From Escherichia coli (GTDB lineage: Bacteria; Pseudomonadota; Gammaproteobacteria; Enterobacterales; Enterobacteriaceae), in the NCBI RefSeq assembly GCF_003334315.1, contig NZ_QOWR01000004.1: a stretch of 64,000 nucleotides of DNA, one strand, 5' to 3'. The notes beneath the pieces are model-generated. The model did no database searches. It had not been told where the DNA came from and saw nothing but the letters and a program-made list of their open reading frames with translations. Positions within the stretch are counted from its first letter, which is position 1. Every line of letters begins with the position of its first letter. This document shows, piece by piece, positions 47,054 to 47,774 of the stretch. The position numbers were made by a program, and so were the translations under genes.

Positions 47054-47217
47054 AGCTTTAATCCTTATTGTTGATGCTTGTTGTGCCTGAAAATCAGGCG
47101 ATTCGTCGTTTTAGTAAACAGTACGAACAGATAAACGGTTATTATAATCAACCTGGCTGTGAGTAGCTATAGTTGCCAGGTCCGACCGGAGCAGGCTGCG
47201 GCAGGGGGGGCGCTTTT

Positions 47218-47257
47218 CCCCTCACCCTAACCCTCTCCCCAGAGGGGCGAGGGGACC
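47218..47257. repeat. GC-rich imperfect palindromic repeat unit (family not assigned)
   Basis: cccctcaccctaaccctctccccagaggggcgaggggacc: nested ccctc / gaggg arms; a related unit (ccccctcgctctttcagggagagggtg) recurs at 47408-47434 overlapping the ycjD 3' end. Confidence 0.6.
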
Positions 47258-47299
47258 GTATTGTGCAAATATTGTTACCCCAGCAACAAACAGGCTCAT

Positions 47300-47434
47300 A
47301 CAGCCCCTAACCCTTTCATGGCGATGGCTGGGACGGTTCAGACCTTGCCGAATATTCTCCAGCACCGTCTCCATGTTTTCACCACAACAGCTATTCGGCT
47401 CGGTCTGCCCCCTCGCTCTTTCAGGGAGAGGGTG
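47300..47434. repeat. Degenerate tandem duplicate of the ycjD 3' end plus palindromic unit
   Basis: Segment 47328-47377 (cggttcag...gaatattctccagcaccgtctcc) is a near copy of 47436-47481 (cggttcag...gaatatgctccagcaccgtctcc), the last codons of ycjD; 22 of 24 identical in the core. Confidence 0.6.
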
Positions 47435-47774
47435 ACCGGCGGTTCAGTTCCTGCAGAATATGCTCCAGCACCGTCTCCTCATTACAATCAATCTCGTTAT
47501 TCCAGAAACGCAGCACGGTCCAGCCCTGCGACTCAAGCCAGCTAGTGCGCCTGGAATCATAGGCAACTGCTAAATCATGCTGCCCACCATCCAGCTCAAC
47601 GACTACACGCGCCGAGCAGCAAGCAAAATCGAGAATGTAGCTCCCCACTGGATGTTGACGGCGAAATTTGAAATCACTAAAACGTCGGCTGCGAAGATAT
47701 CGCCAGAGCTTTCGTTCCTGCAAAGTGAGATTGCGTCTTAAATCACGCGCATTTGATTTTATTTTATCCATCAC
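47421..47774 (-). CDS. ycjD: DUF559 (very-short-patch-repair endonuclease-like fold) protein YcjD
   Basis: 117-aa ORF MMDKIKSNARDLRRNLTLQERKLWRYLRSRRFSDFKFRRQHPVGSYILDF...; matches recalled YcjD. Confidence 0.85.
   Translation of the reverse strand: MMDKIKSNARDLRRNLTLQERKLWRYLRSRRFSDFKFRRQHPVGSYILDFACCSARVVVELDGGQHDLAVAYDSRRTSWLESQGWTVLRFWNNEIDCNEETVLEHILQELNRRSPSP

Follow-up and report, generated by a model that had tools for sequence, protein, structure and literature searches.

The 3′ end of ycjD in Escherichia coli is probably a duplicated junction between a DUF559 gene and a BoxC repeat

Introduction

This study concerns the 3′ end of ycjD, a gene of the DUF559 family, and the BoxC repeats located in and beside it in a 64-kb stretch of DNA (hereafter the window; 64,000 nucleotides of contig NZ_QOWR01000004.1 in assembly GCF_003334315.1) from a K-12-like Escherichia coli. 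The intrastrand-triplex repeats known as BoxC, PIT, or TMECO reportedly go back to earlier work by Bachellier and, in 2000, by Hoyne and Maher. TMECO was equated with the older BoxC and PIT elements by Holder et al. (2015; PMC4666352). In that paper, the G-rich strand of BoxC consensus oligonucleotides formed an intrastrand triplex in vitro, as seen by circular dichroism and nuclear magnetic resonance; in vivo footprinting was negative. The same paper documents BoxC loci as hotspots of rearrangement among E. coli strains, and cites work of the Maher laboratory in which cloned PIT elements had neither promoter nor terminator activity. The repeats have thus been catalogued since the 1990s, and linked to triplex formation in vitro and to genome instability, yet they have been left without a partner protein, an origin, or a function. 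DUF559 is a large family with a nuclease fold and no known role. Its Vsr-like fold has been published (PMC1189080, PMC3424549), and the family was placed in the PD-(D/E)XK group ‘VSR, DUF559, DUF2726’ (PMC3424549, PMC3239194). At the locus itself, ycjD and eefRABCD have been described as alternative alleles between sapF and fabI (PMC12817139).

A structured repeat with a partner gene is known from the repetitive extragenic palindromic (REP)/REPIN-RAYT system, in which a nuclease gene that is single-copy, chromosomal, and vertically inherited lies between inverted GC-rich repeats and the same repeats are dispersed as gene-less inverted doublets. Several RAYT/REPIN pairs occur in Pseudomonas genomes. 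We found that the region between fabI and ycjD is very probably the 3′ boundary of a comparable DUF559/BoxC module, within which a conserved junction between the gene end and BoxC has been duplicated. BoxC no. 9, the ycjD/eef polymorphism, and the Vsr-like fold of DUF559 are already known. In our literature search, we found no published link between DUF559 and BoxC, and neither the tandem duplication nor the fusion alleles of ycjD turned out to have been described. The duplication is polymorphic, recombining, and alters the C-terminus of YcjD between strains, being of modest interest by itself; the valuable and directly testable part is the family-wide DUF559-BoxC architecture.

Tandem duplication of the ycjD 3′ end

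The 13 codons at the end of ycjD (47440-47478; the gene occupies 47421-47774 on the minus strand) are repeated at 47334-47372 with 34 of 39 bases identical (87%) and a spacing of 106 nt, as detected by a repeat finder. A near-identical copy about 105 bp away, as part of a degenerate tandem duplication interleaved with GC-rich palindromes, had been noticed in an earlier reading of this DNA made from the letters alone (hereafter the sequence-only reading), and both observations are borne out. The local alignment of ycjD with its downstream spacer scored 53, whereas 2000 shuffles gave a mean of 18.3 (standard deviation of 2.3) and a maximum of 32, so that none of them reached the score and the similarity exceeds that expected by chance. 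The homology is longer than had been seen before. The 67 nt beyond each core are colinear in a gapped alignment with a score of 32, against 7.3 ± 3.6 for shuffles (1 of 3000 was as good), and the entire 106-nt period was therefore duplicated.

Each unit comprises the last 13 codons of ycjD, a GC-rich palindrome, and a tail of approximately 40 nt, and the two units lie head to tail and are homologous over their full length. Unit 1 (47373-47478, minus strand; 106 nt) contains the core of 13 helix codons, a truncated BoxC, and a diverged tail. Unit 2 (47268-47372, minus strand), corresponding to what had been called a remnant, contains the second core, a decayed BoxC, and its own tail. The differences between the two cores are clustered (CGGCAAGGT vs. 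CTGCAGGAA), and the tails are approximately 60% identical. The 34 nt between the BoxC of unit 1 and the core of unit 2 were at one point regarded as foreign filler carrying an inverted copy of the core, but this idea was rejected, as in the gapped alignment the stretch belongs to the tail of unit 1, which has diverged; it begins with the bases that normally flank BoxC on the outside. When the sequence of unit 2 and the spacer was searched for elsewhere in E. coli genomes, the sole other match was the end of ycjD itself.

Unit 2 opens an open reading frame (ORF) of 50 codons (47222-47374, minus strand) that starts with ATG and resembles the terminal helix of YcjD over its first 14 residues. The ORF exists as described in the sequence-only reading, but does not qualify as a conserved gene: the haplotype with a 119-nt period (see below) has the frame broken, by a 1-nt indel in strain 118UI and locus L006, and in recombinant strains the ORF becomes the C-terminus of YcjD. 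The annotation of E. coli MG1655 is empty between fabI and ycjD, and the second copy thus does not coincide with any annotated small gene unrelated to ycjD. The whole structure borders the promoter region of the essential gene fabI on its upstream side, in agreement with the placement in the fabI upstream region made earlier.

BoxC elements at the locus

Three BoxC elements were recognized at the locus, and the palindromic units of the sequence-only reading are therefore real but not anonymous. The complete one (47218-47253, minus strand) is of type A with one mismatch and inverted relative to the BoxC proximal to the gene. Within the window, the TMECO consensus used, CCCTCNCCC-N3-6-GGGNGAGGG-N3-GGGNGAGGG, is matched exactly at 47219-47253 on the minus strand and nowhere else, and no match is expected by chance; an initial palindrome pattern with a 9-nt loop gave no match, and the published TMECO pattern was required. 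Since a window position is converted to an MG1655 coordinate by adding 1,303,986, the element is TMECO no. 9 of MG1655 at 1,351,204-1,351,239 (PMC4666352, Table 1).

The gene-proximal BoxC in unit 1 (47408-47435, minus strand) is reduced to a hairpin of two blocks, CCCTCTCCC tgaaa GAGCGAGGG. Codons 114-117 of ycjD and its stop codon (TCA CCC TCT CCC TGA, reading S-P-S-P-stop) overlap with this hairpin, and the TGA (47421-47423) is located in its loop. Hence, the palindrome does supply the final codons and the stop of ycjD, as had been proposed. In the K-12 type, this copy is without the third block and its loop (12 nt) and is to be regarded as a truncated member rather than a three-block element; because of the truncation, it is absent from the published consensus search. 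In 118UI, THO-008, L006, and E. ruysiae, the corresponding position is occupied by an intact BoxC with all three blocks (TCACCCTCACCCCAACCCTCTCCC...). A 12-nt difference in ycjD length was also noted in PMC12817139, and the 12 extra nucleotides of the longer allele are the third BoxC block and its loop. The palindrome had been said to follow each copy of the ycjD end. This is correct for unit 1 (47408-47435) but not for the palindrome at 47218-47257, as the one that actually follows the second copy is a decayed BoxC hairpin at 47304-47327 on the minus strand (CCATCGCCA tgaaa GGGTTAGGGG), which is less decayed and three-block in the 118UI haplotype.

The locus agrees with the published picture of BoxC in that it harbors TMECO no. 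9 together with two truncated or decayed copies, and in that its local instability fits the published pattern. It differs in one respect. BoxC has been reported to be always intergenic and without any link to flanking genes (PMC4666352), whereas here one copy overlaps and forms the end of ycjD and the gene family carries the element. BoxC sequences also extend past the 36-nt TMECO core, with an outer flank of GGGG-ac[ct]g-[at][ct][ct]gag in type A and of ttttc[t] in type B. In strain PEC41 (L002, 834-1946), the IS4-like element IS421 lies in the spacer beside BoxC no. 9, at approximately 47208 of the window.

Association of DUF559 genes with BoxC across bacteria

The junction seen in ycjD recurs in its relatives. 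Among the 120 closest homologues, proteins of Enterobacter, Klebsiella, Kluyvera, Lelliottia, Phytobacter, and others end in ...PSPRPSP, which is encoded by CCC TCA CCC CGG CCC TCT CCC, i.e., a type-B BoxC with the C-rich strand in frame. Type A BoxC reads PSP-stop (TAA), as seen in E. cloacae. The Enterobacter orthologue occupies another place in the chromosome, where the gene upstream of it is not the same.

We then considered 80 DUF559 loci fetched from one-genome-per-species contigs by catalytic-core peptide patterns alone, 68 of which entered the orientation counts. The taxa sampled were Gamma-, Beta-, Alpha-, and Deltaproteobacteria, Nitrospiria, Chloroflexi, Elusimicrobia, Melainabacteria, and cyanobacteria. 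C-rich hairpins concentrated at two places, 54 of them at -45 to +60 around the stop codon and 54 at -500 to -360 from it (just upstream of the start codon), with few elsewhere. The third block served as the orientation marker in intervals of 200 nt after the domain and before the start codon. The CCTCACCC-like C-form was found after the domain in 54 of the 68 loci and the GGGTGAGG-like G-form before the start codon in 37 loci, both being present in 35, while approximately 0.04-0.05 third-block matches were expected per interval. When only the loci with a single form were counted, the ratios were 37:5 downstream and 27:0 upstream. In a given locus, one flank is an inverted copy of the other down to the loop and spacer lengths, with a mean identity of 0.76 against 0.66 between loci (0 of 10,000 permutations as high). 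In an independent sample of representatives of clusters at 50% identity, the PSP...GEG read-through signature was detected in 64 of 112 tails, compared with 3.5 in shuffled sequences. In many loci, the third block of the upstream element (GGGTGAGGG) coincides with the Shine-Dalgarno sequence and start codon. BoxC at the gene end is not an accidental insertion, and the join is the rule across phyla, albeit not a universal one.

Arrays starting at the BoxC that ends the DUF559 gene were found in three members of Enterobacterales, namely [Erwinia] mediterraneensis (103 bp × 7.2; L062, 1832-2576), Pseudocitrobacter faecalis (74 bp × 6.6; L016, 1838-2325), and Serratia oryzae (105 bp × 6.2; L030, 1841-2491), and the copies in them match at 92-94%. 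The duplication in E. coli is thus a small instance of recurrent amplification at DUF559 gene ends. These arrays are comparable to the minisatellite-like arrays at bacterial gene ends in having head-to-tail units (74-119 bp) and a copy number that varies between strains or species, but differ from them in that the units are anchored to BoxC and the array starts inside or at the end of the DUF559 reading frame.

Several individual loci deserve mention. A hairpin variant with G.A mismatches recurs in 21 of the 80 loci, which is intriguing as YcjD is a relative of a mismatch nickase. Two DUF559 paralogues, each with its own three-block variant, were found in single genomes (L017/L077 in one metagenome-assembled genome of Xanthomonadaceae, as well as L022/L028 and L037/L068). 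We expected two TMECO motifs to flank the DUF559 gene of Neisseria gonorrhoeae, but this expectation failed, only a degenerate upstream element being present. The gonococcal gene (L096), a relative of PDB 3HRL, has direct, not inverted, flank copies of approximately 50 nt that end in a degenerate BoxC-like hairpin; the record is labeled as a 2.17-Mb ‘plasmid’ but evidently represents a chromosome.

Variation of the locus in E. coli

The population set comprised 5426 complete E. coli genomes. The 5′ region of fabI (47054-47176, minus strand; query positions 1-123), which is outside the repeat structure, is common to all of them including the eef type, whereas the region beyond these 123 nt is present in 3332-3378 genomes. 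The variable segment (47177-47815; no strand applies) contains ycjD, both units, BoxC no. 9, and 41 nt beyond the latter. In approximately 38% of the genomes, the ycjD segment is replaced by the eef island, such that the stretch from 47177 to the sapF terminator hairpin gives way to approximately 7.9 kb encoding a TetR protein, an RND pump, and an MFS protein. The comparison across E. coli proposed in the sequence-only reading showed that the spacer is covered to at least 80%, i.e., in the two-unit state, in 3318 of the 3378 genomes bearing the spacer and ycjD (approximately 98%). Our results share with PMC12817139 the locus, the presence/absence pattern, and the ycjD allele longer by 12 nt; BoxC, the tandem duplication, and the fusion alleles are unmentioned there.

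Four haplotype states were recognized: two units of 106 bp (K-12), two three-block units of 119 bp (118UI, THO-008, and L006), a single unit, and a recombinant deletion of 106 bp. The second haplotype (118UI, L097 at 850-1365; THO-008, L098) was found in 179 genomes and has a ycjD of 366 nt, of which the product ends in ...SPSPQPSP, and a period of 119 nt. Relative to it, the K-12 type is missing 12 nt of unit 1 and 13 nt of unit 2 at corresponding positions. These parallel losses suggest exchange or gene conversion between the units. A single unit was found in E. ruysiae (L009) and in a few E. coli (L007). In locus L005, exactly one 106-bp unit has been deleted by recombination between the two cores. 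Through such a loss of one unit, some E. coli and Shigella dysenteriae possess fusion versions of YcjD of 147-158 amino acid residues (P0008, P0014, P0018, P0022, and P0087), in which the C-terminus is the 50-codon ORF. The direct repeats are thus still recombining, deleting one unit and rewriting the C-terminus of YcjD.

The gene ycjD is at one locus in all of the 3378 genomes having it (3379 places, the extra one being a split gene) and is rare on plasmids. We therefore rejected the reading of E. coli ycjD as a homing or transposon-borne gene, for which the single locus, the rarity on plasmids, and an alternative allele that is a 7.9-kb operon rather than an empty site are all inappropriate. 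In this respect, ycjD is closer to the RAYT genes, which are single-copy and vertically inherited, than to homing or transposable genes.

Dispersed BoxC copies in E. coli

In four of the five BoxC doublets of MG1655 (L091-L095), two inverted elements are separated by 16-27 nt, with the hairpins outermost and the third blocks pointing toward each other. The geometry is that seen around DUF559 genes, minus the gene. The MG1655 doublets are always composed of type A and type B, and the same pairing occurs at the flanks of a deltaproteobacterial DUF559 gene (L027). The inner spacers, of 27 nt, are homologous between the doublet at ygfF-gcvP and that downstream of alx.

In a sample of 60 evenly spaced complete E. 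coli genomes, BoxC was found at a median of 20 places (9-29) in the 37 genomes with ycjD and of 5 places (1-17) in the 23 genomes without it (Mann-Whitney p of 4e-10). Two sampled genomes with the 366-nt ycjD had approximately 14-15 places, like their relatives without ycjD. For the published count, given next, the strains were assigned to phylogroups as generally established and in PMC12817139. In Table S7 of Holder et al. (PMC4666352), BoxC copies number 13-30 in A/B1/C, where ycjD is present, 0-2 in B2, 10-11 in E, 6-7 in F, and 13 in D; the variation was reported there without connecting it to any gene. The count is about 6-15 in D/E/F, in which eef is present. BoxC copy number thus tracks ycjD, but the relationship is strongly confounded by phylogeny and phylogroup and is suggestive only. 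Nevertheless, E. coli provides natural backgrounds with and without ycjD, with 20-30 and 1-17 BoxC copies, respectively.

Origin of the duplicated junction and possible relationship between DUF559 and BoxC

The explanation that we consider very probable starts from a DUF559 coding sequence that, in ycjD and its relatives generally, runs into a three-block BoxC, of which the C-rich strand reads P-S-P-x-P-S-P with the stop codon in or near the loops. In the Escherichia lineage, a unit of approximately 119 bp (13 codons, BoxC, and a 40-nt tail) would have been duplicated head to tail, likely via slipped or unequal recombination at the structure-prone repeat, and the two units may then have evolved in concert by gene conversion, the core being kept at 87% identity. 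The K-12 type would subsequently have lost the third BoxC block from both units at the equivalent place, resulting in the 106-bp period, and the BoxC of the second unit would have decayed. The complete inverted BoxC, TMECO no. 9, would close the module. More speculatively, the YcjD nuclease may itself nick BoxC, which would account for the instability and the arrays as well as for the relation to copy number.

Several points weigh against this explanation. The single unit of E. ruysiae could be ancestral or a secondary deletion, and its BoxC looks like a chimera of those in units 1 and 2. The difference between the core (87%) and the tails (approximately 60%) requires gene conversion or selection, and also fits the origin of unit 2 from another allele. 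Enterobacterial DUF559 genes including E. coli ycjD have BoxC at the 3′ side only and none at the 5′ flank, and the relative in N. gonorrhoeae has no canonical downstream element.

Among the alternatives is the proposal of the sequence-only reading, which is partly supported as a whole, that the 3′ end of ycjD was by chance hit by a palindromic element in E. coli, through insertion or recombination, with a broken gene end as the remnant. In its favor, rearrangement at BoxC loci is unusually common among E. coli strains, and an IS421 did enter the spacer of one strain. Nevertheless, such a one-off event is very unlikely and already contradicted, as orthologues in other genera share the BoxC-encoded PSPRPSP end at a different chromosomal site, the association spans phyla with a fixed orientation, and the supposed remnant is colinear with the whole unit, tail included; the fusion of gene end and BoxC is the conserved state of the family, and the remnant is the second duplication unit. 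Alternatively, unit 2 could be the 3′ end of an earlier DUF559 allele overwritten by an incoming ycjD, in parallel to the orphan C-terminal modules of toxins that build up behind rhs and cdi genes. The sharp fall in identity from the cores to the tails, the clustering of the core differences, and the status of the ycjD segment as one of two alternative cassettes at the site are in favor of this displacement. We regard it as improbable, though less so than the one-off insertion, since the colinear homology extends through the whole unit, the 5426 E. coli genomes contain no other DUF559 sequence that matches unit 2, and the parallel deletions at the equivalent place argue for exchange in situ. 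That the C-terminus of YcjD gave rise to a genuine small gene, the 50-codon ORF, is hardly credible. The ORF has an ATG start and a YcjD-like beginning, but it is unannotated in MG1655, shifted in frame by the 1-nt indel in 118UI and L006, matched solely by YcjD fusion alleles among proteins, and composed mostly of BoxC and spacer DNA.

Beyond the duplicated junction, the physical join of DUF559 and BoxC at the 3′ end of ycjD raises one testable question, namely whether YcjD acts on BoxC DNA. We tentatively propose, at somewhat below even odds, that the three-block BoxC/PIT/TMECO repeats are the cognate repeats of YcjD-like DUF559 nucleases, taking the following three components jointly. The ancestral unit would have been [left end: hairpin + GGGTGAGGG] - DUF559 gene - [right end: CCCTCACCC + hairpin]; the dispersed single BoxC elements and A+B doublets would be gene-less derivatives of this unit; and the Vsr-like nuclease would recognize the structured or mismatched form of the repeat, and thereby maintain, spread, or destabilize the repeats. 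A competing view, which we consider possible but rather unlikely, is that the elements flanking the DUF559 gene serve this gene alone, as cis-regulatory structures in RNA or DNA (a terminator, a stabilizer, or 5′/3′ pairing that throttles a toxic nuclease) and that the dispersed BoxC copies are unrelated to the protein. Consistent with this view, the upstream third block lies at the Shine-Dalgarno sequence or start codon in many loci, the two flanks are complementary, and a different hairpin covers the ycjD start in E. coli. On the other hand, cloned PIT elements were without promoter or terminator activity (PMC4666352), no Rfam family matched, and the gene-less doublets of the same geometry and the copy numbers of 20-30 would be left unexplained.

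If the cognate-repeat proposal is true, DUF559 and BoxC would constitute a second, mechanistically distinct REP/RAYT-like system, and both a 30-year-old orphan repeat and a family of approximately 25,000 clusters at 50% identity would be explained. The wider DUF559 family shares with REP/REPIN-RAYT the single-copy, vertically inherited chromosomal nuclease gene, bracketed in 35 of the 68 loci by inverted GC-rich structured repeats, the dispersal of the same repeat as gene-less inverted doublets (found in MG1655), and the coexistence of several paralogue/repeat pairs in one genome. The differences are that the repeat is three-block (a hairpin plus a triplex-capable third block), that the repeat is at the 3′ side only in E. 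coli ycjD, and that YcjD is a Vsr-like PD-(D/E)XK protein and not an HUH Y1 (IS200/IS605-like) transposase. YcjD thus cannot be filed as a RAYT, and DUF559/BoxC would be an analogue, not a member, of the REP/RAYT class, with the action of YcjD on the repeat being putative.

The YcjD nuclease domain and flanking features

YcjD (117 amino acid residues; annotated as b1289) is a DUF559 protein with the Vsr-like PD-(D/E)XK nuclease fold. It matches the NCBIfam equivalog NF007294 with 1e-80, and Pfam PF04480 was detected on its homologues. The profile of the YcjD family matches PDB 3HRL with 2e-40 and, weakly, the nuclease domain of I-Bth0305I (3R3P) with an E-value of 0.0086. No defence-system model for YcjD was found with PADLOC, and YcjD matches 24,988 clusters at 50% identity. 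The residues E60, D62, and H66, which are of the Vsr/EDxHD type, are invariant across 28 diverse sequences. These residues and the profile match liken YcjD to Vsr and to EDxHD homing endonucleases such as I-Bth0305I. In contrast to the latter, YcjD is a bare catalytic domain without NUMOD or any other DNA-binding domain, and ycjD is outside introns and inteins and shows no sign of homing.

The neighboring genes fabI (46265-47053) and sapF (47842-48648) are on the minus strand, as is ycjD. A terminator-like hairpin with a T-rich run (47292-47306, minus strand; GGGCTGTATGAGCCT GTTTGTTGCT) was detected by a consensus scan in the tail of unit 2. The hairpin is weak but its block is invariant across the haplotypes compared, and we regard it as the probable terminator of ycjD. 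With permissive thresholds, the Rfam search of 46900-47900 returned noise only, chiefly miRNA models on a perfect 17-bp hairpin (47771-47815) between the sapF stop codon and the ycjD start codon. The 3′ arm of this hairpin includes the GAGG Shine-Dalgarno sequence and the GTG/ATG start of ycjD, so it may occlude the start and limit the translation of ycjD. In the eef-type allele (L004, approximately 21968-22012), the stem of the hairpin is identical and the loop is different.

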